DNA from: an uncultured Verrucomicrobiae bacterium
Lineage (GTDB): Bacteria; Verrucomicrobiota; Verrucomicrobiia; Limisphaerales; Palsa-1400
Assembly (NCBI GenBank): GCA_963702845.1
Contig: OY969763.1
Location: forward strand, 5,184,001-5,248,000
Length of the DNA stretch: 64,000 bases
Reading direction: 5' to 3'
Notes under the pieces: generated by a model
Database searches by the model: none
The model's input: only the letters and a program-made list of their open reading frames with translations
What the model was told of the DNA's origin: nothing
Shown here: positions 42,983 through 61,141 of the stretch, one piece after another
Layout of the letters: each line of letters opens with the position of its first letter
How positions within the stretch are numbered: position 1 is the stretch's first letter
Translations under genes and position numbers: made by a program

Positions 42983-43014
42983 ACGCCAGCGTTTTAGCGT
43001 ATGAAGGGATTACT

Positions 43015-43112
43015 CGTCAAAAACTGTAGGAAAAGGAGGGAAACCAGGGAAAGAAACAGCACTTTTTCCCGACAAAATGGGGTGGTTTTGTGCGGTTGGC
43101 ATGAATTTTGAG
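43015..43112 (-). promoter_or_regulatory. 98-bp conserved element, copy A (upstream of the helicase gene)
   Basis: Reverse complement: ctcaaaattcatgcca...aaaaagtgctgtttc tttccctgg tttccctcc ttttcctac agtttttgacg. Confidence 0.85.
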
Positions 43113-43570
43113 GGTGGGTTTTAGCCACAGATTGAACTGGCCGGTGGCGTGAATCACGACCTTGCGTGGGTGAACGCTATCAAGTCCTATCAGGTCATGC
43201 AGGTGGATTTGAGCTAACTCAAGAAGACAAGCGCCTGCAGGAACGGGTTGATGCCTTTCACAGCGCCGCAAATCCTCCCAAAGTTTCTCATTTTTGGTGT
43301 AGCGGTAATGAAAGCGATAGAGTTTCGGAACACCGAAGTTCGCTCTGACCGTCGACGAGATTTCGCTCCATGTCGAACAGGCCATACGACACAAGTGGTA
43401 AGTGTGAGATGCATGTGCGACTTACCCTGATTTTTCTTTACACCACTTTTCTCTATTCCTTCCGTAGCCGGACGTCGGCGTAACCAAAAAAGAAGCAATG
43501 ACCGGGACGTGTGTTCACGTGCCGCGCACCAGGCCTATGGAAGCGCACGCGCATGCCTTGTCGGAATGCC

Positions 43571-44704
43571 ATGAAAATAAATTTTTGCGTACTGGCCCTG
43601 CTCCTTTGCACCGTTGGCTGTAAAGGGAAGCACCGCGTTGCTACGCCGCCTCCGCCAATTGTGGAAGTCGCGCCCGTGACACAAGCCGACGTTCCGGTTT
43701 ATCACGATTGGATCGGCGTTATCGACGGGTTTGTGAATGCACGCATCCGAGCTCAAGTGCCGGGTTATTTGATTTCGCAGAATTATCGTGAAGGTGATCC
43801 AATCAAGAAAGGTGACGTTTTATTTGAAATAGACCGCAGGCCATTTCAAGCAACACTCGACCAAGCCAAGGGGCTTCTCGCGCAAGCCGAAGCAAAACTT
43901 GGCAAAACGGAACTCGACGTCAAACGCTATGCACCATTGCTCAAGGACAAGGCAATCAGCCGGGAGGAATACGATGACGCGGTCCAGGCCAATCTCGAAG
44001 CACAGGCAGCGGTCGCGTCAGCGAAAGCAGCAGTCGAGCAGGCGCAAGTGAATCTGGGGTTTACGCGCATCGAATCTCCAATCGATGGAATTGCGAGTAT
44101 TGCAAATGGACAAATCGGCGATTTGGTCGGGCCCAACACGACTGATTTGACGACGGTCTCAACAGTCGACCCAATCAAAGTCTATTACAACGTTACTGAG
44201 CAGGCTTATATCAATTTCACGAAGCTTTTCACCAGCGAGAGCAATAGATACGAGAGACTGCGAAAACTGGAAATCGAACTTCTTTTGGCCGATGGCTCTG
44301 TTTACCCGTTGAAGGGCAGAATCTATGCGGTTGATCGTCAAGTCAGCCCCACCACCGGAGCGCTTCGAATAGCCGCACTTTTCCCGAATCCTAATTACGC
44401 TTTGCGTCCCGGCCAATTCGGTCGTGTTCGGGTGAAATTCGAGCTTGCGAGCGGCGCACTACTGGTGCCGCAAAAGGCGGTCTCGGAATTGCAAGGCGCT
44501 TTCCAGGTGGCGGTATTGAATTCAAATAACACCGTGCACATCCAGCCGGTCCATCTTGGCGAACGCGTGGGCACACAGTGGATCGTGAAGGACGGAGTGC
44601 ATTTGGGCGATCGCGTCATTGTTGAAGGAACACAGAAAGTGCGTGAAGGCTCGGCCGTTACTGTGACAAACGCGCCGGCTCAGCTTAATTCCGCACCCCA
44701 TTGA
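43571..44704 (+). CDS. RND efflux periplasmic adaptor (MFP) lipoprotein
   Basis: Lipobox TVGC; IRAQVPGYL, IESPIDG, LRPGQF. Confidence 0.9.
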   Translation: MKINFCVLALLLCTVGCKGKHRVATPPPPIVEVAPVTQADVPVYHDWIGVIDGFVNARIRAQVPGYLISQNYREGDPIKKGDVLFEIDRRPFQATLDQAKGLLAQAEAKLGKTELDVKRYAPLLKDKAISREEYDDAVQANLEAQAAVASAKAAVEQAQVNLGFTRIESPIDGIASIANGQIGDLVGPNTTDLTTVSTVDPIKVYYNVTEQAYINFTKLFTSESNRYERLRKLEIELLLADGSVYPLKGRIYAVDRQVSPTTGALRIAALFPNPNYALRPGQFGRVRVKFELASGALLVPQKAVSELQGAFQVAVLNSNNTVHIQPVHLGERVGTQWIVKDGVHLGDRVIVEGTQKVREGSAVTVTNAPAQLNSAPH

Positions 44705-44709
44705 TCCGA

Positions 44710-47700
44710 ATGTCCAAATTCTTCATCAATCGACCAATCGTTGCCATCGTGATCTCAATCATCATGGTTGTCGTTGGGCTTGTTACTCTTTTCGGATTGC
44801 CAGTGGCGCAGTTCCCGAAGGTTGTTCCGCCGGAAATTTTTATCCAGGCAAACTACGTCGGCGCAGATGCGGAGACTATCGAGCAGTCGGTCGCGACACC
44901 CATCGAGCAGCAGATGAGCGGCGTCGACAACATGAATTACATGTATTCGATCAACGCGAACAACGGGTTGATGCGGATGTTCGTCAATTTTGACCTCAAG
45001 ACAGATCCGAACATTGACCACGTTCTACACAGCTGCGCTACGCCCAGGCCGAATCGCAATTGCCTGCAGACGTGCGCAATTTTGGTGTCACGGTCCAGAA
45101 GTCTCTTTCCGCGCCACTCATGCTGGTTGCGCTTAATTCTCCGAATCAAACACGCGACGCGCAGTTCCTGGCCAACTACGCGTATATCAATCTTTCCGAT
45201 CCTCTAAGCCGTCTGCCTGGCATCTCTCAAGTGCAAATATTCGGTGCGGGCCAATATGCGATGCGTATTTGGGTGAAGCCGGATCAGTTGTCGAAGTTAA
45301 ACATAACCGTTCCGGAAATCATCAGTGCAGTTGGAAGTCAGAACACGGTGAATCCCGCCGGCAAACTTGGTGGACGTCCGTCTCCACCAGGTCAGCAGTT
45401 TACGTATTCCGTGCGCGCGCAAGGCCGCCTCGTTACAGAGGAGGATTTCGGCAACATCGTGGTGCGAGCGACTGCTGACGGGGCAATTGTTCGGGTGAAG
45501 GACGTAGCGCGCATAGAACTTGGAGCCGCAGATTACGATATTTATGGTCGTTATAATAGGAAACCGAGCGCGGTTCTCGCGCTGTATCAATTACCAGGAT
45601 CAAATGCCATCGAGGCGGCCAAAGGCGTCGAGCGGCTGATGGCTGAATTGAAAGAACGATTCCCATCCGATCTCGATTATCAAATCTCGATTGATACGAC
45701 CCAGGAAGTCACAGAAGGCATTCGGGAAATCGGCGTAACTTTTTGGGAAGCGCTCGCACTCGTCATGGTGGTTGTTTTCATTTTTCTGCAAGGCTGGCGC
45801 GCGGCACTTATTCCTCTGGCGGCTGTTCCGGTGTCGTTGATAGGAACGTTTGCGGTTTTTCCGATATTGGGATTCTCGATCAATACCTTGTCTCTGTTCG
45901 GCCTGGTTCTCGCGATCGGATTGGTGGTTGACGACGCGATCGTTGTTGTTGAAGCCGTCGAGCATCACATCGAAGAGGGCATGTCGCCGAAGCAAGCCAC
46001 CTTGAAAGCAATGGAGGAAGTTTCAGGCCCTGTCGTTGCGATTGCTCTTATTCTCTCCGCCGTGTTCCTTCCAACGGTATTCATCCCCGGCATTACGGGG
46101 CGGTTGTATCAGCAGTTTGCGGTTACCACTGCTATATCGGTGCTGATTTCTGCGTTCAATGCATTGTCATTGAGTCCGGCTCTGGCGGCGTTGCTGTTGA
46201 AGCCCAAGCGTGAAAGCAAGGGGCCAATCGGCAAATTCTTCGACCTGTTTAATCGTGGGTATCGTAAGGTTACTGACGGCTACATTGGGCTTTGCCGTGT
46301 CCTCATTCACAAATCTGTCTTCGCTCTTCTGTTTCTCGGAATCATTGCAGCAGCCACGGGTTTGTTTGGCAAAAAGCTGCCTACAGGATTTCTGCCCGAA
46401 GAAGATCACGGATACTTGTATGTTAACGTGCAGCTTCCGTTCGCTGCTTCATTGGACCGCACAGTGGACGTTTGCAATCAGGTTGAAACAATAGTTCTCG
46501 CTATTCCCGGCGTAAAAAGTTGCACGACTGTGGCAGGGTTCAGTCTTTTAAGTTTTTCACGCAATACCTACAGCGCGTCATTGTGGATCGCATTGAAAGA
46601 CTGGAATGAACGAAAGACTGCGGCGGAAAGTTACGAATCTATCAAAGCCACCCTGACCAAAAAATTGTCTCAAGTTCCGGGCGCGATCGCGTTTGCGTTT
46701 CCACCTCCAGCCATTCAAGGCGTTGGCACAGCCGGCGGGTTCACATTTGTTTTGGAAGATCGGTCGGGCAAAGACATTCCGTTTCTTGCCGCTAACGTCT
46801 CAAAGTTCATGGAAGCGGCACGAAAGCGTCCGGAAATCGCGAGCATCACAACCACCTTTCTTCCTGTCGTGCCGCAACTTTACGTGGATGTTGACCGAGA
46901 CAAGACGCTGAAACAAGGCGTCGAACTGACCGAGGTCTATAAGACGCTGCAGACATTTATGGGCGGCTATTTCGTCGATTATTTCAATCGTTTCGGCCGC
47001 CAGTGGCAGGTCTACATCGAGGCCGAAGGTGACTATCGCACACGCGCTGAAAACCTGGGTTTATTTTACGTCCGCAATCACGCTGGTGAAGCTGTTCCTC
47101 TCGCGGCACTCACATCAACCAAGACCATCTCCGGACCAGAATTTACAATGCGCTACAATCTTTATCGAAGTGCACAGATTAATGGTTCCTCTGCGCCGGG
47201 CTACAGCTCCGCGCAGGCAACGAAGGCCCTCGAGGAAGTGTTCGCCCAGACGATGCCACCCGAAATGGGTTTTGATTACCTTGGCATATCGTTCCAGGAG
47301 CAAAAGGCCCAGCAAGGAGTCTCGCCCGTCGCGATCTTCGGTCTCTCATTTTTCTTCGTCTTTCTGATTCTGGCCGCACTTTATGAAAGTTGGAGTTTAC
47401 CGTTCAGCGTCCTGCTGGGCACGCCTATCGCTGTGTTCGGTGCGTTTGCGGCGCTGTGGATTCGTGGAATGGTGAACGACGTCTTTGCGCAGATCGGATT
47501 GGTAATGTTGATCGGCCTGGCTGCCAAGAACGCCATCCTCATCGTCGAATTCGCACGGCTGGAATACGAAAAAGGCCAGCCGCTGATCGATAGCGCACTT
47601 ACTGCGGCGCGAATTCGTTTGCGCCCCATTCTGATGACTTCTTTTGCCTTCATTCTCGGAACTGTTCCCCTTTCGATCGCAACCGGGGCTGGTGGAGTGT

Positions 47701-47888
47701 CGCGGCGTGTTATCGGCACAGTGGTAATCGGAGGCATGTTGGCCGCGACTTTAATCGCCGTCTGTTTGATTCCCGTGACGTTTTATGTAGTGGAAAAATT
47801 TTCGAGTCGTTTCAAACGCACGACCACAAGTGACTCGGAACGACCATCGGACGGAGGAGTAACACCTTCAGTGGGAACTAATGAATGA
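44710..47888 (+). CDS. HAE1-family RND efflux transporter (1-nt frameshift near 45028)
   Basis: MSKFFINRPIVA; GLVVDDAIVVVE; GLAAKNAILIVEFA; RLRPILMTS. Frames join as IDHVL-x-QLRYAQAESQLP. Confidence 0.9.
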
Positions 47889-47897
47889 TTGACACCA

Positions 47898-49364
47898 ATG
47901 AGCGACGAGAGAAACAAATCGAAATCATCAACGGTCGAAACGTGGGCGATTCGTTGTTTATTGTCGGTTTATCACCCGCTGCCATGTGCCCCAATATTTG
48001 TAATTCTACTTATTCTCTTCGGATGCGCTGTGGGACCCAACTACAAACGTCCGGCAGTCCAGTTTCCGGGCATATTCCGAGGAGATACCAGCCGTACAAA
48101 TGCTTCTTTCGCTAATCTCGATTGGTGGCGTGTATATCAGGACACGAACCTTCAGGCACTCGTGTGTGAGGCATTCACCAACAACTACGATATACGCATC
48201 GCATGGACTCGCATCGAACAGTCGAGGGCGCTCGCGATGCAAGCGCGATCCCAGTTCGTTCCAAGTGTAAATTACAATGGAACCGTAAGTCGGGGGCGGA
48301 ATGTTGAGTTCGGTTCGGTTTTTCCTAACAACGGCAACACTGTAAGTTCCGCTGTTGCGACAATAAATTCCTTCTGGGAAGTGGATCTCTGGGGACGCGT
48401 GCGACGCCTGAATGAAGCCGCTCGCGCAAGATTTCTTGCTTCAGAAGATGCCCGACGGGGAGTGCAGATCATACTTCTCAGCGACGTTGCCGCTAATTAC
48501 TTTCAGCTTCTTGAACTCGACCGGGAACTGGAGATCGCCAACCGTTCGAAAAGCTCATTTGGCGAGAGCCTGCACATTTTTAATCAGCGCGTCGCGGCGG
48601 GCACTGTATCTGCGCTGGCATCATCGCGGGCAGAGGCGGCATTGGCCGATGCAGCGGCTGCCATTCCGACGATACTGCAGCAAATATCAAACACTGAAAA
48701 TGATTTATGCGTGCTTCTTGGACTCCCACCCGGTCCGATCAGGCGTAGCAATGTCACACTGGAAACGTTGCTACCGCCGAACATTCCGCCTGGATTGCCG
48801 TCCGCATTGCTGGAGCGGCGTCCAGATGTGCGAGAGGCGGAACAACAATTGCACGCGGCAAATGCGGAGGTTGGCGAAACTCTGGCCGAATTTTTTCCAA
48901 AGATCGGATTAACTGCGTTGATGGGCAGAGCGAGTCCGGGACTGTCGGCTTTCACCCTTGGCAGCGCTAACACCTGGGGTATTGCGGCCCAAGCGACCGG
49001 ACCTCTCTTTGAAGGTGGAAGGCTTCTCGGACAAAACAAACAGGCTCGAGCGTTTCGGGATGAAACAGCTCTTCGCTACCGGCAGACCATTCTCGGCGCA
49101 CTGCGCGATGTTTCCGATGCTTTGACATCACGAGAGCGATTTGCCGAAGTCCGCGATCAGCGGGCAATACAGGTGAAAGCGCTGCAAACAGCCGTCAAGC
49201 TGTCCTCCGAGCGTTATGTTGTTGGAAAGGCAAGCTATTACGAAGTTCTCGAAGCCCAGCAACAATTGTTTCCGTCAGAATTAAGCCTGGCACGCACCGA
49301 AAGAGATCAACTCCTGGCCGTGGTCGCGCTCTACAAGGCGCTGGGAGGAGGTTGGAAGGAATAG
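47898..49364 (+). CDS. NodT/OprM-type outer membrane efflux lipoprotein
   Basis: LFGCAVGPNYKRP, WEVDLWGR, LLERRPDV, LYKALGGGW. Confidence 0.9.
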   Translation: MSDERNKSKSSTVETWAIRCLLSVYHPLPCAPIFVILLILFGCAVGPNYKRPAVQFPGIFRGDTSRTNASFANLDWWRVYQDTNLQALVCEAFTNNYDIRIAWTRIEQSRALAMQARSQFVPSVNYNGTVSRGRNVEFGSVFPNNGNTVSSAVATINSFWEVDLWGRVRRLNEAARARFLASEDARRGVQIILLSDVAANYFQLLELDRELEIANRSKSSFGESLHIFNQRVAAGTVSALASSRAEAALADAAAAIPTILQQISNTENDLCVLLGLPPGPIRRSNVTLETLLPPNIPPGLPSALLERRPDVREAEQQLHAANAEVGETLAEFFPKIGLTALMGRASPGLSAFTLGSANTWGIAAQATGPLFEGGRLLGQNKQARAFRDETALRYRQTILGALRDVSDALTSRERFAEVRDQRAIQVKALQTAVKLSSERYVVGKASYYEVLEAQQQLFPSELSLARTERDQLLAVVALYKALGGGWKE

Positions 49365-49380
49365 AATGCGATCTGAACCT

Positions 49381-49438
49381 AACCCGGCGTTAAAACGCCG
49401 GGTATGAGGATCGGAGTTGAATAAGTCCCTCCGGGACT
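49381..49438. repeat. Palindromic intergenic element / bidirectional terminator-like hairpins
   Basis: ACCCGGCGTTAAAACGCCGGGT and AGTCCCTCCGGGACT between convergent genes. Confidence 0.5.
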
Positions 49439-49456
49439 GCTCGGCTCCTTGCCGAT

Positions 49457-50824
49457 TCACGCCGGCGGCGGACGCAACATCGTCTCCACTGGCACGCCTT
49501 CCGCCAACGTCTTCCCACTCACGTCCCCACCCAGCTTCAACAACTTCTCCCCGCTGGGCCGCACGCGCGTTTCGTAGCTACCCACGGCATCATTGTAGGC
49601 TTTCGAGGCTTGTTCCAACCCACTGCGAATCTTCTCGAAATGCTCGGTGAACTTCACGATGCGCAAAAAAAGTTCCTGCGCATTCTCTGAAATTTCACGC
49701 GCGTTCTCCGTCTGCGCATGTTGCTGCCAACTCATGCTCACGGCCCGCAGTAGCGCAATCAGCGAAGCCGGTGTCGCGAGCATGATTTGCTTTTTTGCCG
49801 CCCACACAATGAGGTCCCGATCCGCTTCGAGCGCTGCGCTGAACAACGATTCCGCCGGCAAAAATAAAACGACGTAATCGAGTGCGTTTTGGAATTGGCG
49901 CGGGTAATCGCGGTCGGCCAGCGCTTTGATCGTCGCCTTCAACTTGGCGGCATGCGCGGACAAGGCCTCGTTGCGTTTCAGTTCGTCGGCCGAATCCATC
50001 GCGCTGAGGAAATCCAGATCGGGCACCTTGGCATCGACAATGATGATGCGATTTCCCGGCAGGCGAATCGTCAGGTCTGGCTTCGAATCACCGGACTGAT
50101 CCTGCTCCGTGAAATCACAGTGCGCACTCATACCTGCGGCCTCGACAACATTGCGCAACGTCTCTTCACCCCAACGACCGCGCGCCTGATTTGAGCTGAG
50201 CACTTTGCGCAACTGCAACGTCTCGCTGGAAAGCGTCTGGCTGTTTTGCGCGAGGCTCTCGAGCTGTTTCTTTACCTCGCCGAGCGTCGAAGCCTGCGTG
50301 GTTTCGCTTTGTTGCAAGCGACGTTGATACGACTCGAGCTGTTCCTTCAACGGCTGCACCAACGAAGCAATGGCCTCCTGTCGTTTGCCCAAATCGCCTT
50401 TGGCCGACTCCTGGAATTTCGCCAACGTCTCATTAGCGAGCGCGAGAAACTGCGGCTGCGTTTGCTTCAAGGCATCGGCGCTCAACGCCTTGAACGCCTC
50501 ACGCAAGTCGACCAGCGCCTTGTCCTGCGCCAACTTGGCTTCGGCCAGAGTCTTGTCGTGCAGTATCTGCGCCTTTTCGAGAAGCAGTTGGGACGCGTCG
50601 CGCTCGGATTCCGCTTTCGCTACCGCCACGCAATATTGCGTCGCTTGCTGACGCGCCTGCGCCAACTCCCCTTCACGTTGGCTGAGCCGTTCCTTCAGAT
50701 CATCCTCGAACCGGCTATCGCCACCGTTCATCGGCGCCGACTTCCGGCCTTTGACAAAGCCGATCGCCCAACCGAGCACCGCGCCGATCACCACCCCAAT
50801 CGCAACATAAGCAATGCTCGGCAT
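49457..50824 (-). CDS. rmuC: DNA recombination protein RmuC
   Basis: N-terminal TM and coiled coil; RGRWGEETL, PD..I.LPG.R.IIVDAKVP, VVLFLPAES, ATPASLIALL. Confidence 0.92.
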   Translation of the reverse strand: MPSIAYVAIGVVIGAVLGWAIGFVKGRKSAPMNGGDSRFEDDLKERLSQREGELAQARQQATQYCVAVAKAESERDASQLLLEKAQILHDKTLAEAKLAQDKALVDLREAFKALSADALKQTQPQFLALANETLAKFQESAKGDLGKRQEAIASLVQPLKEQLESYQRRLQQSETTQASTLGEVKKQLESLAQNSQTLSSETLQLRKVLSSNQARGRWGEETLRNVVEAAGMSAHCDFTEQDQSGDSKPDLTIRLPGNRIIIVDAKVPDLDFLSAMDSADELKRNEALSAHAAKLKATIKALADRDYPRQFQNALDYVVLFLPAESLFSAALEADRDLIVWAAKKQIMLATPASLIALLRAVSMSWQQHAQTENAREISENAQELFLRIVKFTEHFEKIRSGLEQASKAYNDAVGSYETRVRPSGEKLLKLGGDVSGKTLAEGVPVETMLRPPPA

Positions 50825-50830
50825 CAGGGA

Positions 50831-51211: not shown

Positions 51212-51279
51212 GTCTCCAGACATTCAAGCCGCGTTCTCAAACACGGTCAAGCATGGCCCGCTCCGAGCGACTTTGCGCA

Positions 51280-51295
51280 TGGCACAACCGCTGCT
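51280..51295 (+). promoter_or_regulatory. Sigma54 (-24/-12) promoter candidate
   Basis: TGGCACAACCGCTGCT; predicted +1 about 51306, adjacent to the GTG at 51307. Confidence 0.55.
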
Positions 51296-51306
51296 TATAA
51301 ACAGGC

Positions 51307-51921: not shown

Positions 51922-54215
51922 GCCAAGCCCTTTCCAACAACCCGCGCATTTCAGTGCGCGCTCTTGAACTGTTCAAAGAACAACAGGGCAGCATCGCCAA
52001 ACACACCGACCACATCTTCGCGTGGCTGATGATTTTCCAATGGGTCGCCGGCATCGCCGCGTCATTGGTCATTTCGCCGCGCGCATGGGTTGGCGACTCC
52101 AGCTACGTCCATATTCACGTTTGGGCGGCCATCCTGCTCGGCGCAATCATCACCGCCGTGCCGGTTGCGATGGCCTATTCCTCCCCGGGCCAGACCTTGA
52201 CCCGACACACCATCGGTGTCGGCCAAATGCTCATGTCCGCCCTCCTCATTCATTTGACTGGCGGGCGCATTGAAACGCATTTTCACGTTTTCGGTTCACT
52301 CGCCATCCTCGCCTTTTATCGCGATTGGCGCGTCCTTGTGTCCGCCTCGGCCGTCGTTTTCGTGGACCATTTGCTGCGCGGGTTCTTCTGGCCACAATCC
52401 GTTTACGGCGTCATGAGTGCGCCCATTTGGCGTTCCTTCGAACACGCGGGCTGGGTTGGTTTCGAAGTCACCTTTCTGATTATTTCCATCCGCAAAAGTT
52501 TGAAAGAAATGCAAAACGTCGCCGAGCGGCAGAGCAATCTTGAAGCAGTCAACGAAACGATCGAACGCACCGTCGCCGAGCGCACCGCTGAACTCACGCG
52601 CGAAATCGCCGAGCGCCGACAAATCGAGGAAGATCTCAAACACAGCCAGGCCCAACTCGCCCATGCGCAACAAATCGCCCATATCGGCAGTTGGGAATGG
52701 GACCTCCTCACCGACAAAGTGATTTGGTCCGACGAAACCGCGCGCCTCTACGGTTTTGCGCCGAACGACCTCGGCATGTCGATGGAAGCCTGCCTGCAAC
52801 GCATCCATCCCGAGGACATCGGCAAAGTCCGCCAGGCCCTCGATTACACGCTCCGGACCGGTCAGCCGTTCGATAGCGATCATCGCGTCCTCTTGCCCGA
52901 CAGTTCCGAACGCGTCATGCACGGTCGCGCCGAAGCCCGTCAGGACGATCTTGGCAAAGTCATCCACGTCATCGGCACCGCCCAGGACATCACCCGCGCG
53001 CGTCGCAACGAAGAAGCCCTGCGTCGCAGCGAAGAACAATTGCGGCAATCCCAAAAAATGGAAGCCGTCGGTCGTCTCGCCGGTGGCGTTGCGCACGATT
53101 TCAACAACCTCCTCACCGTCATCAGCGGCTATTGCGCATTGCTCACCCGCAAAGTCAAAGCCGACGACCCGCTTCGTTCCAGCGCCGACCAAATCCAGCG
53201 GGCCGCCGAACGCGCCGCCGGCTTGACGCGACAACTCCTTGCCTTCAGCCGCAAACAAGTCCTGCAACCGCGCATCCTCGACCTGTCGGAAGTTGTTGGC
53301 GGCATGGAAAAGATGCTACATAGAGTCATCGGTGAAGACATCGAATTGCGCACCATTTACGATGCGAACTCCGGCAAAATCGAAGCCGACCCTGGCCAAA
53401 TTGAACAAGTCATCTTGAATATGGCCGTCAACGCTCGCGACGCCATGCCGCAAGGCGGCAAGCTCACCGTGCGCGTGTCCAACGTTGTCTTCGATCAAAA
53501 AACCGTCATCCGCAATCGCGGCCTCGAAGCCGGTCCTTACGTCATGATCGCCATCAACGACACCGGCGTCGGCATGACGCCCGAAGTCAAAGCCCACCTC
53601 TTTGAACCCTTCTTCACCACCAAAGGCGTCGGCAAAGGCACCGGCCTCGGACTGGCCACCTGCTTCGGCATCATCAGCCAAAGCGGCGGCGACATTCGTG
53701 TTTATAGCGAGCCCGGCTCCGGAACGACCTTTAAAATTTATCTGCCGCACGTCGAAAAAAATGTTGTGCCAGTCATCCCCAACGACGACACCGACACCCT
53801 GCCCGGCGGCACCGAACGCCTCTTGATCGTCGAAGACGACGAAGCCGTGCGCAACCTGACCCGCACCGTTTTGAGCGAATGCGGTTACACGATTGAACTG
53901 GCCAACGACGGCGCTGAAGCCCTGGCATTGCTCGAAAAAGATAACCGTTTCGACCTCATCATCACTGACGTGATCATGCCGCGCATGAGTGGACGGCAAC
54001 TTTACGATCACGTCCAAAAATCATTGGCCGATACCAAGGTCCTTTTCATTTCCGGTTACACCGATGACGCCCTGGCCACGCGCGGCGTCCTCGAACAAGG
54101 ATTTAACTTCCTCGAAAAACCATTCTCACCCCACGCCTTGGCGCGCCGGGTTCGCGAAATCCTCGACGGCGCCGAAGACGACACCATGTTCCGCCGCCTC
54201 AAAGCCACCGCCTAA
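51918..54215 (+). CDS. Membrane hybrid histidine kinase (TM sensor, PAS, HisKA/HATPase, REC)
   Basis: IETHFHVFGSLA membrane sensor; GGVAHDFNNLL; EPFFTTKGVGKGTGLGL; REC DVIMP; ATGA overlap with the upstream gene. Confidence 0.92.
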   Translation: MSQALSNNPRISVRALELFKEQQGSIAKHTDHIFAWLMIFQWVAGIAASLVISPRAWVGDSSYVHIHVWAAILLGAIITAVPVAMAYSSPGQTLTRHTIGVGQMLMSALLIHLTGGRIETHFHVFGSLAILAFYRDWRVLVSASAVVFVDHLLRGFFWPQSVYGVMSAPIWRSFEHAGWVGFEVTFLIISIRKSLKEMQNVAERQSNLEAVNETIERTVAERTAELTREIAERRQIEEDLKHSQAQLAHAQQIAHIGSWEWDLLTDKVIWSDETARLYGFAPNDLGMSMEACLQRIHPEDIGKVRQALDYTLRTGQPFDSDHRVLLPDSSERVMHGRAEARQDDLGKVIHVIGTAQDITRARRNEEALRRSEEQLRQSQKMEAVGRLAGGVAHDFNNLLTVISGYCALLTRKVKADDPLRSSADQIQRAAERAAGLTRQLLAFSRKQVLQPRILDLSEVVGGMEKMLHRVIGEDIELRTIYDANSGKIEADPGQIEQVILNMAVNARDAMPQGGKLTVRVSNVVFDQKTVIRNRGLEAGPYVMIAINDTGVGMTPEVKAHLFEPFFTTKGVGKGTGLGLATCFGIISQSGGDIRVYSEPGSGTTFKIYLPHVEKNVVPVIPNDDTDTLPGGTERLLIVEDDEAVRNLTRTVLSECGYTIELANDGAEALALLEKDNRFDLIITDVIMPRMSGRQLYDHVQKSLADTKVLFISGYTDDALATRGVLEQGFNFLEKPFSPHALARRVREILDGAEDDTMFRRLKATA

Positions 54216-54230
54216 CAGAGCCGGATGTAT

Positions 54231-54378
54231 AACCACCAAGACACCAAGTTAAGAACAGATTAGCCGCAGCAGTGCGGAAAAAGGTGGATCGCGCCAAGCC
54301 GACGCGGTGTTTCAAAAAATGATTTTCTTCTTCTTTGTCCTCTGGGGTTTTCTTGGTGCCTTGGTGCCTTGGTGGTTA
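54231..54378. repeat. Element with inverted AACCACCAAG(A/G)CACCAAG termini
   Basis: aaccaccaagacaccaag ... cttggtgccttggtgccttggtggtt. Confidence 0.65.
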
Positions 54379-54475
54379 AAACAATCCGTGTTTGCGAACC
54401 GGACGTTCCGGTCTGTGTTCCATCCGTCGCTAAAATTGGCCTCGATTTCCCACCGTTACCGTCCTACTCTCCGCT

Positions 54476-54943
54476 ATGGACATCGTCTTCAAGTGCCCAA
54501 GTTGTGAACAGGAACTCGAAGTGGATGCCAGCGGGGCCGGCACACAAATCCAATGCCCCTCTTGCAACACGGTCATTACCGTTCCCAATCCTGAACCGGC
54601 CAACATCGTCACCATGCCGGACGTCACCAATGCCGCCCGACTTGAAGAAAAACACTACTCCGTCCCACACGACAAAGCGCCCGAGGCCTTGATTAAAAAG
54701 CCGAAACGCCCCCTTGAAATCGCGGCCAAAGACGGCGACAAAAAAATCCGCGTCAAAACCATTCGCCGTTCGGATTGCCAGGAAGTCGGACGCGACCACT
54801 TCGACGAACGCGTTTCAGAATTTTTGGATCAGGTAGGCCAGTCTAATATCGTGTCCATCAACGCCATCAACTACAGCCATCCCGACGCCGGCGGTCACAA
54901 CATCGTTCAGGACTACGGCGTGATGATCGTGTTCAAAGGCTGA
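54476..54943 (+). CDS. Zinc-ribbon-containing hypothetical protein
   Basis: CPSC...CPSC at the N-terminus. Confidence 0.75.
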   Translation: MDIVFKCPSCEQELEVDASGAGTQIQCPSCNTVITVPNPEPANIVTMPDVTNAARLEEKHYSVPHDKAPEALIKKPKRPLEIAAKDGDKKIRVKTIRRSDCQEVGRDHFDERVSEFLDQVGQSNIVSINAINYSHPDAGGHNIVQDYGVMIVFKG

Positions 54944-54970
54944 TAACGGCGACGTTTGGAGCCTTGCAGC

Positions 54971-55070
54971 ACATGGCGTAGCCATGTTTGAAGGTAGCCG
55001 TGGGTTTCAACCCATGGGAAGGTGTAAAAACTAACAGTATCTGTGTCGCGTAGCGACACGTCAACCGGCG
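54971..55070. repeat. Half copy of REP family A
   Basis: ACATGGCGTAGCCATGTTTGAAGGTAGCCGTGGGTTTCAACCCA...TGTGTCGCGTAGCGACACG. Confidence 0.8.
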
Positions 55071-55116
55071 TTTGAATGCTTTCTAATTGTCCGACAAAGG
55101 CTCGTGATTTTTGCCT

Positions 55117-55623
55117 TCACGCGGACTCTTGCGGCCGGTCGTCTGACCTCTGCGGACGCCGTTTGATCGTTGGCGGTTGAGCAACCTTCTTCGCAGCCAC
55201 GGCTTTCGCAGGTTTCTCCTCCAACCATTTCGTAAGAAACTCGATCACATCCTGGCATTGGTAAGTCTTACGGAAATACGCCGTCGCTCCCGCCGCCGCC
55301 GCGTGACTGACGTCCACATCCTCGTTCGACGTGGAATAAAGCACCATTGGAAGCTCGCGGAACTTTGGATGGGCCCGCACCCACTGTAGTAATTCAAGGC
55401 CGCTCATGCGAAACATCTTCATGTCGCTCAAAATGATTTGCGGCAATGGATACTGCTCGCGATCGACGTATTGCTCCTCGCCGTTGAGATATTCCACCGC
55501 GAACATCCCGTCCGGGGCGGTTTGCAGATTCAGGGGTAGCCCGGATTTTTTGAGGGCCCGCTCAAAGACAACCGCATCATTCGGATCGTCTTCCACGTAT
55601 AAGATAGTCGGCTTACTACGCAT
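55117..55623 (-). CDS. Single-domain response regulator
   Basis: ILYVEDD, IILSDMKM..MSGLELL, YFRK. Confidence 0.85.
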   Translation of the reverse strand: MRSKPTILYVEDDPNDAVVFERALKKSGLPLNLQTAPDGMFAVEYLNGEEQYVDREQYPLPQIILSDMKMFRMSGLELLQWVRAHPKFRELPMVLYSTSNEDVDVSHAAAAGATAYFRKTYQCQDVIEFLTKWLEEKPAKAVAAKKVAQPPTIKRRPQRSDDRPQESA

Positions 55624-55737
55624 GTTTCCCTTTCGTTGTTAAACGGCCTGGACGACCGCACGATAATAGCCAACCGCCCGACGTTGTCAATCGCACCTAT
55701 GGCGTAATCGGGTGTCAGATAATTACCCACAAGCCAC

Positions 55738-55835
55738 GTCAGGTTACGTGCCACACCATCAAAAACCGCACATTTTTGTGGAAAAAAGTGCTGTTTCTTT
55801 CCCTCCTCTCCCTCCTTTCCCTACATTTTTTGACG
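55738..55835 (+). promoter_or_regulatory. 98-bp conserved element, copy B (upstream of protease-capsid)
   Basis: gtcaggttacgtgcca...aaaaaagtgctgtttc tttccctcc tctccctcc tttccctac attttttgacg. Confidence 0.85.
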
Positions 55836-55878
55836 GTGTAGCAATTTAATACAAACTCCCCCACGTGCATGAAGCACC

Positions 55879-55977
55879 TGTCGCCCCCCGCCGTGAGGAG
55901 GCACTGAATGAAGAAAATTCGAAGCACGAAGCTCGAAATTCGAAACTTGGAAGAAGCCTCCTCACGACGGCGGCACA
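55879..55977. repeat. REP-like inverted repeat enclosing 7-mer tandem repeats
   Basis: CCGCCGTGAGGAGGC ... GCCTCCTCACGACGGCGG; inner aaattcg aagcacg aagctcg aaattcg. Confidence 0.7.
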
Positions 55978-55998
55978 GAAACCGAAAGAACAAAAGAT

Positions 55999-56733
55999 AT
56001 GAACGAAATTTTAGAACGAGAATTTGGATCGCGCTTAATCAACCTGCGCAACGGCGCGCGCGGCCTGCGCGAAGGCCTCCACGTCCGCACCAGCATCCCC
56101 AAAGACGCCGGCAGCGAACCGGTCGTCGACTTCATCAGCTCCGATGAATCGCTCGATCGCTACAACGAAGTCATCAGCGCCTCCGGCTGGGTGCTCGATC
56201 CCTATTTGAAAAACCCGGTGTTCCAGGACTCGCACGATTACTCCACCATCCTGCGCACCATCGGCAAAGCCAGCGTCACCCAGGTGCGCGATGGAAAACT
56301 CTTTCAACGCATTCACTTCGCCGTCAACGCGAACCCGTTGGCCAAGATCGCCCACGCACTTTACAAAGGCGGTTTTCTCAACGCCGTCTCTGTCGGCTTC
56401 GTGCCCTTGAAATGGCAAAATGGCGATAGCGCCACCGGCTTTTCGCGCCGATACACCAAACAAGTTTTGCTCGAAACCAGCGCCGTCGCCATTCCCGCCA
56501 ATCCCAACGCCTTGCAACTGGCCTACGATTCCGGCGCGGTCGAGAAAAGCGACCTTCGTGAACTCCACCAGCTTCTGAGCGCCGTGGCTTCCGAAGCTCA
56601 TCACACGTCACTCGCCAATAATCACTTTCCGTCGGCAGCTCCACGTTCCAACACCAGCGCTTTGGGAACGTCCAGCGATGAAGCGCAGCAGTTAGTCAAC
56701 CTGATGAAACAAGCCGCGGCACTGTGCCGATAG
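55999..56733 (+). CDS. HK97-family phage prohead protease
   Basis: SSDESLDRYNEVI..SGW, NPVFQDSH, IGK, GFLNAVSVGF, LLETSAVAIPANPNA. Confidence 0.88.
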   Translation: MNEILEREFGSRLINLRNGARGLREGLHVRTSIPKDAGSEPVVDFISSDESLDRYNEVISASGWVLDPYLKNPVFQDSHDYSTILRTIGKASVTQVRDGKLFQRIHFAVNANPLAKIAHALYKGGFLNAVSVGFVPLKWQNGDSATGFSRRYTKQVLLETSAVAIPANPNALQLAYDSGAVEKSDLRELHQLLSAVASEAHHTSLANNHFPSAAPRSNTSALGTSSDEAQQLVNLMKQAAALCR

Positions 56734-56750
56734 GCCTGAACCATCAACCC

Positions 56751-56887
56751 GTAGCGCAGGTTTCCAAACCTGCTGTATCGCAGGCCTCCGAGCCTGCGGG
56801 GCGTAGGAACTTCGCAACGTTTGCGAACCACCGACGCGCTGCCGATTTGGAAATCGGCGATACAGCAGACTTGGAAGTCTGCGATAC
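56751..56887. repeat. GTAG-type REPIN-like element
   Basis: GTAGCGCAGGTTTCCAAACCTGCTGTATCGC ... GCGATACAGCAGACTTGGAAGTCTGCGATAC, inverted. Confidence 0.8.
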
Positions 56888-56926
56888 GAAACAGAACCGA
56901 ACCAAAAACAAAGAAAGAAGAAAAAT

Positions 56927-58174
56927 ATGAACACAGAAATCACAACTCAGCCGCTTGAGGAAATGAAGTCCCTCCTGCAACAAATCCAATGGGCCAATCG
57001 CGAACTGGTTAAAGATTACCAGAGCGCGTCCACCGAAATCAAAACCCTCGGCGCTTCACACCAGAAGCTCTCGACCGATTTCGCCGAAGCCCAGAAACAC
57101 CTCGAACAACTCCGCCGCGGCACACTCGGCGCGACCAGTTCACGCCTCGCGCACCAGGCCGTCAGCGACGATTGCGCGCGTTACATCGCGGCAGCCGTCG
57201 TGTGCGGCGCGGACGCCATCGGTGGCCTCAACCACATCAAAGGCGCGCAACGCGACAGCCTTGTCGGCGAATGCAAAAACGTTCTCGGCCTCGAAACCCG
57301 CTCCGCATTGACCACGAGCGATATTCCGTTGCCGACGATGTATTCGCAGCAAGTCGTCGAACTCGTTTGGAAATACGGCCAGGCGCGCCAATTCGCCACC
57401 GTCTATCCACTCGGCCAGGGCACCACGAAGTTGCCGCAGTTGAAGACCAGCCCGAGCTTTGGCTTCATCTCCCAAAGCGCGAGCATCACGGAAAAATCGC
57501 CGCAGATTCAATTCGTGACCTTCAACCCGCAAAAAGCCGGCGGCCTCGTGCGCATCCCCTCCGAGATCGACGCCGACAGCATCGTCCCGCTCGGCCAATT
57601 CCTGGCGCGTTACATCGCCCGTGAAATGGCGCGCTGGGAAGACAGCGTGTTGTTCCTTGCCGACGGCACTGGCACTTACAACAGCCTCAAAGGCGTTGGC
57701 CAGACCGCCATCGACAACGCGTTCGCCTTGCAATTGGCCACGAGCAAAACCAAACCGACCGACATCACGGTGAACGACGTGCGCAACCTGCGCGCGAAAG
57801 TGAACTCGGCCGCGTTGTTCAGTGGCGCATACTACTTCCATCCCACGATGGAAGCGTTGCTGCGCTCCTTCAACAGCGGTGCCAACCCGCCGTTCGTCGT
57901 GAACGCGAATGGCCAGGCCACGTTCGAAGGCTTCCCCGTCCGCTGGGTCGGCGTGTTGCCCGTCTACGACGGCAACGCCCACGCGTCCCAGGTGCAGGGT
58001 GCTTTCGGTGACCTGAGCTACTGGTACTTCGGCGAACGTTCGTCCGTCTCGATGGACGTTTCCCGCGAAGTCTACTTCGCGACCGACGAACTGGCCGTGC
58101 GCGCCCTTGAGCGTTTCACCGTGCAGCTGATGGCCAACGACGCCGTCGCTGCGTTGCAATTAGCCGCGAGTTAA
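56927..58174 (+). CDS. HK97-fold major capsid protein
   Basis: Coiled-coil delta-like N-terminus; PTMYSQQVVEL, EIDADS, LADGTG..KG, G.PV, FGDLSYW, RALERF; follows the protease. Confidence 0.88.
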   Translation: MNTEITTQPLEEMKSLLQQIQWANRELVKDYQSASTEIKTLGASHQKLSTDFAEAQKHLEQLRRGTLGATSSRLAHQAVSDDCARYIAAAVVCGADAIGGLNHIKGAQRDSLVGECKNVLGLETRSALTTSDIPLPTMYSQQVVELVWKYGQARQFATVYPLGQGTTKLPQLKTSPSFGFISQSASITEKSPQIQFVTFNPQKAGGLVRIPSEIDADSIVPLGQFLARYIAREMARWEDSVLFLADGTGTYNSLKGVGQTAIDNAFALQLATSKTKPTDITVNDVRNLRAKVNSAALFSGAYYFHPTMEALLRSFNSGANPPFVVNANGQATFEGFPVRWVGVLPVYDGNAHASQVQGAFGDLSYWYFGERSSVSMDVSREVYFATDELAVRALERFTVQLMANDAVAALQLAAS

Positions 58175-58179
58175 ACCAA

Positions 58180-58263
58180 CCGCCACAACCCACCCCCCTC
58201 TCCTCCCAGGGACGACTCGAGATTCTTCTCATGTCGCTGTCGGAGGAGAGGGCAAGTGGGCGG
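58180..58263. repeat. Long hairpin (CCCTCTCC/GGAGAGGG-type REP or terminator) after the capsid gene
   Basis: CCCTCTCCTCC ... GGAGGAGAGGG with outer CCGCC/GGCGG. Confidence 0.55.
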
Positions 58264-58648
58264 AGGAAAAAAATATGAAAATTGAAATCAATTCACCCGT
58301 AAATCGCCACATCGCCCCGACGTGCAACATTTCGCGAAGCGAGAATGACCTACGCAGCACTGCTCATTCCTCAACCCTGAACTCTCAACCCTCAACAAAT
58401 CTTTACCGCCACCGCGCCGTAGTGCGCGCCCGCCGCCGCCGTCGCGGTTTTGGTGGGCCGCTCCGCTGAGCTCTTTCGGAGTGCGGATCGCCGACGTCCG
58501 CAGCAACGTCGGTCGCAACCATCGCGTCAAAAACAATTCGCGCGCCAACACCACATCTTACGTTGCCGCGCCCGCGACGGGCGCACTCCGATAATTACTA
58601 ATCCCTTGATTCCACATCGCACCAAAGACATGGTCATGCGCGACGTTC

Positions 58649-59563
58649 ATGGATAAGCAACGCCAAAACTTGATCGGTGGTGTGCTGCTCGGCACGGCCA
58701 TCGCGATTTTCCTAGAGGTAGTCGGCTACCTTATCGTTCGTGGGGCTCGCGCAGAGTTCGGCTGGGTGATGTTCATTATTGTGCCGTTTGTTTCAGGCTT
58801 TGCCGTTGCCGCCGTCGTGCGACACCCCAAACGGATCCTCGCGTGCTGTATAACCGGCGGCATCATCACGTTCTCACTCATGCTATTTTTAGGATGGGAG
58901 GGCATCATTTGCTGCGCGATATCGTCGCCCTTGGTTGCCTTCGGCGTCTGCGTCGGCGCATTCATGGGCTATAAGGTGCGCGGACGCTTCATCGACAAAC
59001 TTCCAGACCCGGGAAAGACGACGATTTTGTTACTCCCGCTCTGCCTGCTCTTCATCGCAGCCGCGGACCGCGTTGAGCGTCCATTGCGTTCAATCCAGCA
59101 ACACGAAACTTTCACTACCGAGACTATGATCGCAGCTTCGTCGGAGCGCACATGGGATTTGGTCGCGCAAATGCACAAACTCGATGGCCCGCGACCATTC
59201 TTGTTATGGGCCGGCTTGCCAAATCCAACACGGTGCGAGCTGGATCATCCCGGCGTTGGCGGACATCGGGTTTGTTATTTCGATAGCGGGATCATTACAC
59301 AGGAAGTCACCGACTGGCGGCGGCCTGAATTCATGGGCTTGCGGATTACAGAAAGCACCTTGCCCGGGCGGCACTGGCTCACTTTCATCAACGCCAGTTA
59401 CGAACTATATCCGGAAGGCGCGAACACAAAAGTGGTGCGCCACACCACCATCGGGACACGACTATATCCACGTTGGTACTGGCGACCTTTGGAAAGATGG
59501 GGCGTCACCTCCGAGCACGAGTTCGTCTTCTCTAATCTGCATAGATGGACAGACGCAAAATGA
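58649..59563 (+). CDS. Membrane protein with C-terminal SRPBCC/START domain
   Basis: Five TM segments (WEGIICC), then IAASSERTWDLV...GVGGHRVCYF...YPRWYW. Confidence 0.7.
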   Translation: MDKQRQNLIGGVLLGTAIAIFLEVVGYLIVRGARAEFGWVMFIIVPFVSGFAVAAVVRHPKRILACCITGGIITFSLMLFLGWEGIICCAISSPLVAFGVCVGAFMGYKVRGRFIDKLPDPGKTTILLLPLCLLFIAAADRVERPLRSIQQHETFTTETMIAASSERTWDLVAQMHKLDGPRPFLLWAGLPNPTRCELDHPGVGGHRVCYFDSGIITQEVTDWRRPEFMGLRITESTLPGRHWLTFINASYELYPEGANTKVVRHTTIGTRLYPRWYWRPLERWGVTSEHEFVFSNLHRWTDAK

Positions 59564-59600
59564 GCGATTGCCCACGTGCCGAACGGCTTCTCAGTTGATG

Positions 59601-60533
59601 ATGAAACCGCTCCACCTCCTCCTCGTCGCGTTCACTATCGCCACCGCGGCGCTCCACGCCGCTGACGAGCCGAAGAAACCGCGCATCGTTGGCGATTGGT
59701 GGCAGGTCGCGGGCGATCCTGATCTCGGGAATCTCACCAATCCAAAACAGCAAACGGTCGACTTCGCCGTCTGGCAGGCCGCCGATGGCGCGTGGCAACT
59801 TTGGTCCTGCATTCGCGGGACGAAAGAGCCGGGCAACACACGCCTCTTTTACCGCTGGGAAAACGCCACGCTTACCGAACCCAATTGGAAACCGACGGGC
59901 ATCGCCATGCGCGCCGACCCAAAGACCGCCGAAGCGCAGGGCGGCTTGCAGGCTCCGTTTGTTTTCCGCGACGGCGCGCGCTTCGTCATGTTTTACGGCG
60001 GCTGGAACGACATCTGTTCCGCGACCAGCACCGACGGAAAAACCTTCGCGCGCATTACAAACGCGCAAGGCAAAGTGACCCTCTTCGGCGCGCCCACCGG
60101 CAACACGCGTGACCCGATGGTCATTCGCATCGGCGCACTCTGGCATTGCTACTACACCGCCCATCCCGAAAACAAAGGCGCAGTCTATTGCCGCACCTCA
60201 TCCGACCTGAAGCACTGGAGCGACCCACACCTCGTCGCCCGCGCCGGCCAATCCGGCGACGGCCCATGGTCATCCGAATGTCCATTCGTCGTCGAACTCG
60301 CCCCGGGCCAGTTCTACCTCTTCCGCAATCAAGTTTACGGTAAGGACGCCCGGTGCAGCGTCTACTACTCGCGCGACCCGTTCGATTTTGGCGTGGCCCA
60401 CGACGAAGGCCACTTCATCTGCACCCTGCCTTTGGCCGCACCGGAAATAATCCATCAGGGAAACGAATGGTTCATCGCCTCACTCCTCCCCTCGCTCAAA
60501 GGCATCCGAATCGCCCGGCTCGCGTGGGAATAA
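59601..60533 (+). CDS. Secreted five-bladed beta-propeller glycosidase (GH32/43-like)
   Basis: Signal peptide; LQAPFV, RDPMV, SECPFV, APEII. Confidence 0.7.
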   Translation: MKPLHLLLVAFTIATAALHAADEPKKPRIVGDWWQVAGDPDLGNLTNPKQQTVDFAVWQAADGAWQLWSCIRGTKEPGNTRLFYRWENATLTEPNWKPTGIAMRADPKTAEAQGGLQAPFVFRDGARFVMFYGGWNDICSATSTDGKTFARITNAQGKVTLFGAPTGNTRDPMVIRIGALWHCYYTAHPENKGAVYCRTSSDLKHWSDPHLVARAGQSGDGPWSSECPFVVELAPGQFYLFRNQVYGKDARCSVYYSRDPFDFGVAHDEGHFICTLPLAAPEIIHQGNEWFIASLLPSLKGIRIARLAWE

Positions 60534-60592
60534 CGGGATCTGATCATGGCTACGTCATGGACCAAAACGTGCGCCACAAACCCTTCCCTTAC

Positions 60593-60943
60593 TTACTGAA
60601 CTTTAAGTTCGCTTCTTTGCCCGTCTTGCGTCGTCACCCATGCCTTGGAGAGATGCCATTCGGACAGCTTGCTGCCTTTGACGAAGTGATAGGTGTAACA
60701 GGACGGATCATCGCCTCTCATCACAAAAATATTCCGCGTGCAGGGATAAGTGATACGGTCGAACATCTGCGAGCCTTCCATGTGAATGTCACCACCTTCA
60801 CCAGGAGGCAACCCCGGCAGTTTACCGGCATCCTCCATCTCCACAAAAACCCGCGCTAAATCTTTTTGGACATTATTTGTGGCACATGAAACAAAGAGCC
60901 AACAGGTCGCTAATACGAATACGGTCTGAATTGTTCTACGCAT
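60593..60943 (-). CDS. Hypothetical lipoprotein
   Basis: LFVSC lipobox; AT-richer codon use. Confidence 0.55.
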   Translation of the reverse strand: MRRTIQTVFVLATCWLFVSCATNNVQKDLARVFVEMEDAGKLPGLPPGEGGDIHMEGSQMFDRITYPCTRNIFVMRGDDPSCYTYHFVKGSKLSEWHLSKAWVTTQDGQRSELKVQ

Positions 60944-61043
60944 AAGAAATCGTTTACCTCGTTTGGACTATCCAACCACCGAGCTTAACACTAGCGATAC
61001 CAACAAACAATCCCTCAGCTGGCTAAAACCTGCCTTTTAGCCA

Positions 61044-61141
61044 CTCAAGAACCATGCCACCCGTCTGAAAACGCCACATTTCGTCATAAAAAGGTGCTGT
61101 TTCTTTCCCTGGCTTCCCTCCTTTCCCTACATTTTTTGACG
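61044..61141 (+). promoter_or_regulatory. 98-bp conserved element, copy C (upstream of adaptor-portal-terminase)
   Basis: ctcaagaaccatgcca...aaaaaggtgctgtttc tttccctgg cttccctcc tttccctac attttttgacg. Confidence 0.85.

Follow-up and report, generated by a model that had tools for sequence, protein, structure and literature searches.

A promoter-like element heads the operons of a Mu-derived capsid module and recurs across a Verrucomicrobiae genome

A DNA element with the appearance of an activator-dependent promoter stands ahead of all four operons of a phage-derived gene module in an uncultured Verrucomicrobiae bacterium (Palsa-1400) and recurs across the chromosome, with 33 copies in 6.03 Mb. 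We consider it probable, though well short of certain, that the element is the activator-dependent promoter of a fixed, apparently tail-less and Mu-derived capsid module, and that it has also reached about 30 other sites, probably as the leading part of small-terminase cassettes. That it acts as the on-switch of the module's structural and replication blocks is likely. The stretch analysed, here called the window, comprises 64,000 nt (positions 5,184,001-5,248,000 of the forward strand of contig OY969763.1, GCA_963702845.1; genome G000), and the genomes compared with it are all close kin, among them two sister species (G001 and G002) and members of two other genera (G003 and G007).

Three 98-bp copies lie in the window, at 43015..43112 on the minus strand facing a helicase gene, at 55738..55835 on the plus strand facing protease and capsid genes, and at 61044..61141 on the plus strand facing adaptor, portal and terminase genes; they align without gaps, as a preliminary description of this DNA had reported, and are 74-81% identical. 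A 17-mer that the description called invariant occurs exactly three times in the window (four matches at up to three mismatches, against 0.11 expected) and is constant in these copies, but not among the 33 that an nhmmer profile finds genome-wide, for which accepted copies had E<=5e-8, the next match had E 0.3 and a second-round model added none. A fourth copy belonging to the module lies 3 kb beyond the window end. No tRNA or att site was found within the window, and a structured RNA was rejected as an identity for the element, there being no Rfam match at five loci and folding no better than that of shuffles in three of four strands.

The full element spans about 125 bp and consists of an outward sigma54-like site, A/T tracts, two to four tandem 9-bp repeats, TTGAC(G/A), a spacer of 16-17 bp and a -10 box. 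The repeats, proposed here as activator sites, lie at 43026..43052 (minus), 55798..55824 (plus) and 61104..61130 (plus); they number three in 27 of the 33 copies, as first described, with four repeats in four copies and two in another two, and 5 bp separate the end of the contiguous array from the -35 that follows. The element does not end at TTGACG, where it had originally been delimited, since 30 of 33 copies have a -10-like hexamer 15-18 bp past TTGAC(G/A), where shuffles gave a mean of 4.8 and a maximum of 11. The related remark that only weak -10 candidates are present applies to the four module copies, none of which has a good one; elsewhere, 25 of 29 copies do. In the window, these putative sigma70 promoters, recognised by consensus match in the first case, occupy 42991..43020 on the minus strand (-35 at 43015-43020, weak -10 candidate at 42991-42996), 55830..55857 on the plus strand and 61136..61164 on the plus strand, the latter two again pairing a -35 with a weak -10 candidate and the last being absent from the list of a strict scan. 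At the far end, the TCA-N7-TGCCA motif of the preliminary description is present, but its opposite strand reads as a sigma54-type -24/-12 site. Sigma54 promoters show a GG-N10-GC spacing with TGGCAY at -24. Sites of this type, at 43097..43112 (plus), 55738..55753 (minus) and 61044..61059 (minus) in the window, occur in 31 of 33 copies and in none on the forward strand (shuffle mean 0.2); the spacing is kept in all 31, yet about half end in GA rather than GC. The activator-promoter model leaves this site unexplained, and it is absent from the G003 alignment.

One could instead suppose that the element is mainly an outward sigma54 promoter, its repeats forming the enhancer for a sigma54 activator and its cargo lying upstream of the copies, with an NtrC-family gene (35356-36945) as the candidate activator. 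The fixed distance of the -24/-12-type site in 31 of 33 copies, the presence of rpoN in five of five genomes and the position of the NtrC-family gene beside the regulatory switch in both G000 and G002 would fit such a scheme, as would an upstream gene pointing away from the element at six of the eight copies that head an intact phage gene versus seven of the 25 others (p 0.035), a count in which a stricter length filter removed a 116-aa divergent gene before copy 3. Outside the elements, all nine cases of the sigma54 variant with a final A share their orientation with the next gene, but in the same scan control spacings 3 and 5 were also often co-oriented. Overall, an outward-facing gene is present at just 13 of 33 copies, the G003 element has no sigma54-like site, and the NtrC-family protein is 95% identical (over its N-terminal 326 aa) between species whose repeats differ; we regard this scheme as improbable.

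The genes behind the three window copies are those previously described. Copy 1 faces a DnaB-N plus AAA_25 gene of helicase/primase type (41498..42982, minus); copy 2 faces a prohead protease (55999..56733, plus) and an HK97-type major capsid protein (56927..58174, plus) that is the sole PF05065 match in the genome; and copy 3 faces a head-tail adaptor (61220..61837, plus), a portal (61949..63751, plus) and the start of a Mu gp28-type large terminase (63803..64000, plus), which continues past the window and carries one in-frame stop in this assembly. Capsid, protease, portal, adaptor and terminase are all caudoviricete-derived, and the module's blocks occupy 28 kb (C1:5222.7-5251.3 kb) in both orientations, split by host gcvH, rmuC-like and efflux genes. 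The labels 'holin-like' and 'gp25-like' rest on position and hydrophobicity, with no family match; gp27-like genes match PF11985 under its curated cut-off, and the module's own gp27-like gene is missing its N-terminal part. No Mu transposase was found in G000-G003 or G007, including by tblastn of G000 with three prophage transposition sets, and no integrase among the module-region ORFs viewed or scanned. Tail and neck ORFs taken from six related prophages or viral contigs likewise had no match in G000, in a search that unrelated tails could escape. A regulatory switch lies nearby, in which a cI-like HTH_3 repressor gene (39307..39720, minus) diverges from a winged-HTH gene (39832..40245, plus); a 72-aa gene (38743..38961, minus) with a separate palindromic box ahead of it also adjoins the repressor in an intact prophage.

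The preliminary description had placed the element at the head of phage blocks, but confinement to such blocks is not supported: eight of the 33 copies head an intact phage gene and 25 do not. At least eight of the other copies are followed by a Mu gp27-like small-terminase gene reduced to a stub and then by a host gene, and about 9-14 of 33 have no blastn link to a terminase leader. The downstream gene reads in the direction of the element at 31 of 33 copies, against a background of 56% (p 2e-6), and a hand count of 15 leading and 18 lagging copies showed no replichore bias. These arrangements suggest that core genes, among them atpD, prfB and parB, are now driven by phage promoters that terminase cassettes left behind. 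Copies often lie at synteny breaks; two comparisons of filled and empty sites, made to look for target-site duplications, were too diverged to define the element's ends. Many copies before unrelated genes, the condition that the preliminary description itself named as refuting its reading and that holds here in part, is what a generic MITE or REP-type repeat with no tie to phage genes would produce; most copies do precede unrelated host genes, and REP-like repeats often lie just upstream of the element. Such an origin is nonetheless very improbable and largely refuted: terminal inverted repeats are absent (exact matches reach 3-7 nt at most), four strands gave no stable hairpin (z 0.95, -0.05, -1.89 and 1.11), there is no Rfam match at the five loci, many copies adjoin terminase stubs, orientation to the next gene is fixed, and a sequence-unrelated element has the same role in two other genera. 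The proposal of an activator-dependent promoter joining replication and head genes has fared better, as the element heads four of four module operons, has its weakest -10 there and has an analogue in G007 that was found only before module operons.

Comparison with the related genomes reveals that this arrangement recurs with different repeats. The element precedes the adaptor and holin-like operons in G002, the helicase gene in G001 (73% complete, five copies) and the protease and helicase genes in a metagenome relative, in which an attempt to pair the repeat unit with its activator was unsuccessful. In G003 a different 9-bp-periodic element has 29 near-full copies, and the 20 inspected stand ahead of the protease gene, a holin-like gene, two gp27-like genes and, for the remainder, host genes; in G007 a third tandem 9-bp element was found twice, both times ahead of module operons. 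The 9-bp period is also present in G001, G002, G003 and G007. The G000-based model had no match in 38 of 41 genomes, the elements of the other genera being found only by inspection upstream of the protease gene, and BLAST with the G007 upstream region matched itself alone. Repeat-core identity is 0.82-0.88 within a genome and 0.60-0.69 between genomes, the unit is genome-specific even at orthologous sites, and 55 copies cluster by genome. The earlier view that fixed motifs point to selection rather than recent copying is therefore half right, the repeat core having been homogenised within each genome.

Several observations bear on whether the module is still maintained. Its genes have dN/dS of 0.08-0.29 against G001 and G002, with dS mostly in the range of host genes, and synteny with the sister species is kept, gcvH lying inside the module in both; the module is under purifying selection in the sister species and appears to be vertically inherited. 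Were it a slowly decaying prophage, with the element a once-active promoter, now dead, that neutral recombination had multiplied and homogenised, one would point to the stop in the G000 terminase, the truncated gp27-like gene of the module, the patchy distribution of the capsid (present in three of the 25 family genomes whose completeness is 85% or more) and the copies at synteny breaks. The terminase, however, is intact in G002 and G007, and two related contigs, from relatives about 90% alike, have a sense codon at the G000 stop site; G000 rpoN is also frameshifted, so that assembly errors may account for the broken genes of this genome. The purifying selection and the synteny kept between species, together with the retention of -35, -10 and repeat phase while spacers drift, further argue against decay, which we consider improbable.

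The winged-HTH protein encoded at 39832..40245 is probably the reader of the repeats, a candidacy that draws on modelled structure. Its model compares with Xis at Z 7.5 and BldC at Z 6.1, middling values none of which reaches 8; an atlas comparison gives 0.93 to Cox, and there is no Pfam or NCBIfam match. Relative to the G002 orthologues, it has 58% identity versus 86% for the repressor, with changes in its second helix. The gene occurs in eight of 301 genomes of the order, and seven of these eight belong to the 25 that have the capsid, although the compared genomes are close kin and this co-occurrence is not independent evidence; it was not found in G001, which carries element copies. BldC binds head-to-tail on 9-bp direct repeats of varying number (PMC5859096), and Cox, a phage protein of the same fold, activates the late promoter P4 PLL from upstream sites (PMC5859096, PMC3936717). 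The likeness to BldC, Xis and P2 Cox lies in the small winged-HTH fold and, for BldC, in contiguous 9-bp repeats of variable number; the repeat here, unlike theirs, matches neither the AATT consensus of BldC nor the cox box, cox boxes are spaced 10-11 bp, and its unit differs from one sister species to the next at tens of sites. We envisage that the protein stacks head-to-tail on the repeats as BldC/Xis proteins do, bends the DNA at its A/T tracts and brings in sigma70 polymerase, such that relief of the cI-like repressor would turn on the helicase, head, packaging and lysis-position genes together. Copies would move with gp27-like cassettes and then lose the terminase gene, and dispersed copies may gain a stronger -10 and be retained because they drive the host gene that comes next. 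The core could be rewritten when copies recombine or undergo conversion with one another, so that every site follows the current activator.

The association with terminase genes also admits a packaging function, in which the element, or the leader behind it, would be the packaging start: the small terminase would bind the repeats where the DNA is bent, terminase would cut close to where the gp27-like gene begins, and the dispersed copies would let heads fill from many chromosome positions. In eight relic copies the homology to the intact cassette breaks off 6-70 nt inside the gp27-like gene, and the genome holds eight large-terminase and 15 gp27-like matches, but the eight stubs may stem from few events, and other gp27-like genes have different upstream boxes. 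Leaders carry 10-bp phased arrays, and 27 of 238 such arrays lie within 900 bp behind a copy, most being located away from copies. The helicase and protease-capsid operons carry the element yet have no terminase, and the G007 element stands only ahead of operons, and we judge a packaging start unlikely. A point against the promoter reading that we favour is that 23 of 24 family genomes contain dispersed gp27-like genes, although most of these genomes lack this capsid and activator, so cassettes spread independently of the module.

Beyond the promoter reading that we favour, a bolder proposal may be entertained tentatively: the module could be a domesticated head-only gene-transfer system in which activator and operator change together in each species, about 30 promoter-terminase cassettes are rewritten in place to match the current code, and each copy combines the roles of regulon promoter, entry point for packaging or recombination, and promoter of captured host genes. 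Gene transfer agents (GTAs; PMC9662315; BaGTA, 10.1101/2024.11.20.624540) likewise have head and packaging genes of phage origin that are chromosomally fixed at several loci, and the chimeric BaGTA places a replication gene under one control with capsid genes. GTAs are vertically inherited and co-diversify with the host; here, synteny and host-like dS within the genus go together with patchiness in the family. GTA particles, by definition, carry and deliver mostly random host DNA, in a head that cannot hold their own genes. The present module differs in its Mu-like ancestry, in having no tail genes found and in coordination apparently through a repeated promoter rather than antitermination. 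The GTA classification paper does not mention Verrucomicrobia, and literature searches among papers accessible without subscription, on Verrucomicrobia/Pedosphaera phage genes, Mu-like domesticated GTAs and dispersed pac sites, listed no description of the element. Our findings offer a concrete regulon, with operator, candidate activator, repressor and target operons, for a candidate GTA-like module in an abundant soil phylum, as well as a testable case of how a regulator and tens of sites may change specificity together, with three operator codes at the same loci in three sister genomes.

Other mobile systems share parts of this organisation. Capsid-forming PICIs also combine a repressor switch, helicase/primase, HK97-type capsid, portal, terminase and adaptor with no tail, but they form one compact island of conserved order (median 14 kb) with an integrase at its edge (PMC10085698), unlike these dispersed blocks, which are interrupted by host genes, show no integrase among the ORFs viewed or scanned and hold their position across species. 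PeSL cassettes of T4-type phages (PMC2839356) similarly place many mutually recombining sigma70-like promoter copies beside swappable genes, whereas this element lies in a bacterial chromosome, has no stem-loop terminator (no significant fold in four strands) and carries tandem operator-like repeats and terminase stubs. IMG/VR had no matches to three element patterns, 15 viral contigs with the capsid had neither element nor winged-HTH gene in the parts fetched, and the intact prophages inspected had no clear tandem 9-bp sites at late promoters. Mu-like Verrucomicrobiota prophages (G296, G263, G031 and IMG/VR contigs) differ in that a single block still holds their transposition and tail genes and in having no element, and they share with the module the repressor, a 72-87-aa gene, the winged-HTH gene, gp25-gp27-gp28, portal, protease, capsid and adaptor.

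The preliminary description reported three gap-free copies of a 98-bp element in the window, at 43015-43112 (minus), 55738-55835 (plus) and 61044-61141 (plus). These align without gaps at 74-81% identity, so the element is real, but it is not limited to three copies: the profile scan of the whole source genome (G000; 6.03 Mb in one contig, the window being C1:5184001-5248000) that the description had proposed returned 33 copies before a sharp fall to background, and a structure-free covariance model agreed on the number. At the upstream edge, the strand opposite the element reads GG(C/T)AY-N5-(T)TG(C/A), a site matched in 31 of 33 copies versus a shuffle mean of 0.2. In most copies its distance from the -35 end is 82 bp, with displacements of 9, 11 or 16-17 bp in those bearing indels. 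A and T tracts follow, then two to four contiguous 9-bp units (TTTCCCT plus GG, CC or AC in G000), a T run with a TTGAC(G/A) -35 box, and a -10-like hexamer at 16-bp spacing in 27 copies; by the consensus sequences, the upstream site is sigma54-like and the -35/-10 pair sigma70-like. The four copies that head the Mu-derived, head-only gene set (the module) have the poorest -10 boxes: good boxes occur in none of these four versus 25 of the 29 others, the copies being non-independent. Neither a terminal inverted repeat nor a stable hairpin was found in the element. The upstream flanks of many copies carry short 8-9-bp REP-like repeats, presumably of the kind that lies beside GxxExxY genes.

Intact phage-type genes follow eight of the 33 copies: the three window copies, before the helicase, protease-capsid and adaptor-portal-terminase genes; one at C1:5251246, before a membrane gene at the holin position together with gp25- and gp27-like genes; three before pairs of a gp27-like (small terminase) gene and a large terminase gene; and one before a lone gp27-like gene. 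Eight more copies have a 250-320 bp leader in common with this lone cassette, the homology ending 6-70 nt into its gene, three further copies share the leader of another cassette, and the remainder form small groups for which blastn found no terminase tie. The next gene is co-oriented with the element in 31 of 33 cases, and such genes include atpD, an aconitase-family gene, thiG and acs, as well as prfB and parB, recognised by eye. At the site matching C1:790929, where G000 has a stub, a metagenome relative has a gp27-like gene of full length whose leader differs. Two direct-orientation copies flank a single cupin gene (C1:4389621 and 4390819) where the sister-species genome G002 has one copy of the element, a gain or loss of a gene-plus-element cassette. 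Elsewhere (C1:132859-136018), a second AAA_25-type helicase gene precedes a different terminase-like pair and the element is absent.

The element model found 17 copies in G002 and five in the other sister-species genome, G001, and gave no hit in 38 further genomes; one metagenome assembly held 16 loci with the G000-type unit. An unrelated-looking element in G003, from another genus, places three 9-bp-periodic units ahead of a promoter-like stretch and has 29 near-full copies; the genes headed by the 20 inspected are protease-capsid, the operon at the holin position, two gp27-like genes and host genes, atpD among them. G007, of a further genus and with one gp27-like gene, carries its own tandem 9-bp element twice, each before one of its two module operons. 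Thus what recurs is the architecture and its association with the module, and not the sequence. The repeat unit itself is TTTCCCT in G000 and T(G/C)TCTCT in G002, and most units in G001 read CGTCTCT; core identity is 0.82-0.88 within genomes versus 0.60-0.69 between them, and 55 copies cluster by genome (G000 99/97, G001 100/99, from a bootstrap that had not fully converged). At eight orthologous sites the core resembles its orthologue no more than it does other copies (ranks 1-15), the orthologue ranks first at three of the eight for the downstream 40 bp, and two upstream subtypes are present in both G000 and G002. This pattern of core versus flank suggests that, at fixed sites, either the core or the entire cassette has been replaced; conversion, an exchange of cassettes or site-by-site selection may each be the route. 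In the metagenome relative, several copies join flanks that lie far apart in G000.

A candidate activator is the 137-aa winged-HTH protein encoded at 39832-40245 (plus), divergent from a cI-like repressor gene in a pair kept in G002. Its predicted model (mean pLDDT 72, core about 90) resembles Pukovnik Xis (Z 7.5, rmsd 1.8, 53 residues), BldC (Z 6.1, rmsd 1.6, 52 residues) and P2 Cox (Z 4.5), and an atlas match to Cox at 0.93 serves as a lead only. BldC binds head-to-tail to 9-bp direct repeats of varying number and bends the DNA (PMC5859096), and Cox activates P4 PLL from upstream sites (PMC3936717). The gene occurs in two of 25 family genomes, both having the close form of the capsid, and directly precedes the late genes in another genome, G031. 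The predicted fold and these analogies fit a protein that would bind the 9-bp repeats, and are not proof of binding. An NtrC-family sigma54 activator gene (35356-36945) adjoins the repressor/winged-HTH pair in G000 and G002, on opposite sides.

The repressor, the small gene, the winged-HTH gene and the late genes recur in intact tailed prophages of the order, which add transposition and tail genes; none of these extra genes was found in G000, which has one capsid match and two portal matches. Transposase and tail protein were likewise not found in G001, G002, G003 and G007, three of these genomes being less than 85% complete and the tail-protein query having failed on a tailed prophage in G006 too. 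Module genes show dN/dS of 0.08-0.29 against G001 and G002 (host controls, 0.03-0.19) at dS of 0.33-1.5, and a host gcvH lies between the terminase and gp27-like genes in both G000 and G002. The in-frame stop in the G000 terminase is missing from G002 and two related contigs and, as G000 rpoN is also frameshifted, may be an assembly error. Frameshifts split both an RND transporter gene (44701-47888) and rpoN, suggesting indel errors in the G000 assembly. The element likely acts in the manner of a phage late-promoter regulon whose operator is of the BldC/Xis type and which serves a GTA-like module; the outward sigma54-like site falls outside this account. The module may belong with the gene transfer agents (PMC9662315), and it lacks the compactness expected of cf-PICIs (PMC10085698). 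At two loci (G027:C312 and G053:C137), a lone capsid gene immediately precedes Mu-type transposase A/B genes, with neither portal nor terminase found nearby; these are possibly capsid-carrying transposons. Protease-capsid-adaptor trios amid host genes, without tail genes, at L033, L187-L188 (G037 and the closed genome G163) and L193 (G117) belong to another family and would, from gene content, be further head-only remnants.

Gp27-like genes are dispersed in 23 of 24 genomes, making this a trait of the whole family, and other gp27-like genes in G000 carry a separate palindromic box with 28 copies genome-wide; the wider spread of cassettes therefore carries the element along and was not caused by it. 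G000 has 15 gp27-like matches, a single capsid gene and eight Mu gp28-type large terminase genes (C1:2184k, 2302k, 2595k, 2759k, 3498k, 4754k, 5248k and 5839k). The second box, CACTTGGACA-N5-TGTCCAAGTG, has a window copy at 39050-39076 (minus). Its copies stand before recA, a DNA-ligase-like gene, several of the gp27-like genes and the 72-aa gene next to the repressor, a place at which G002 has kept it, and the box could connect the module to DNA damage. Repeats phased at 10 bp form 238 arrays in G000; the arrays are of many sequence types and frequently finish with an A run, and 27 lie behind the element, 21 behind the second box and most elsewhere.
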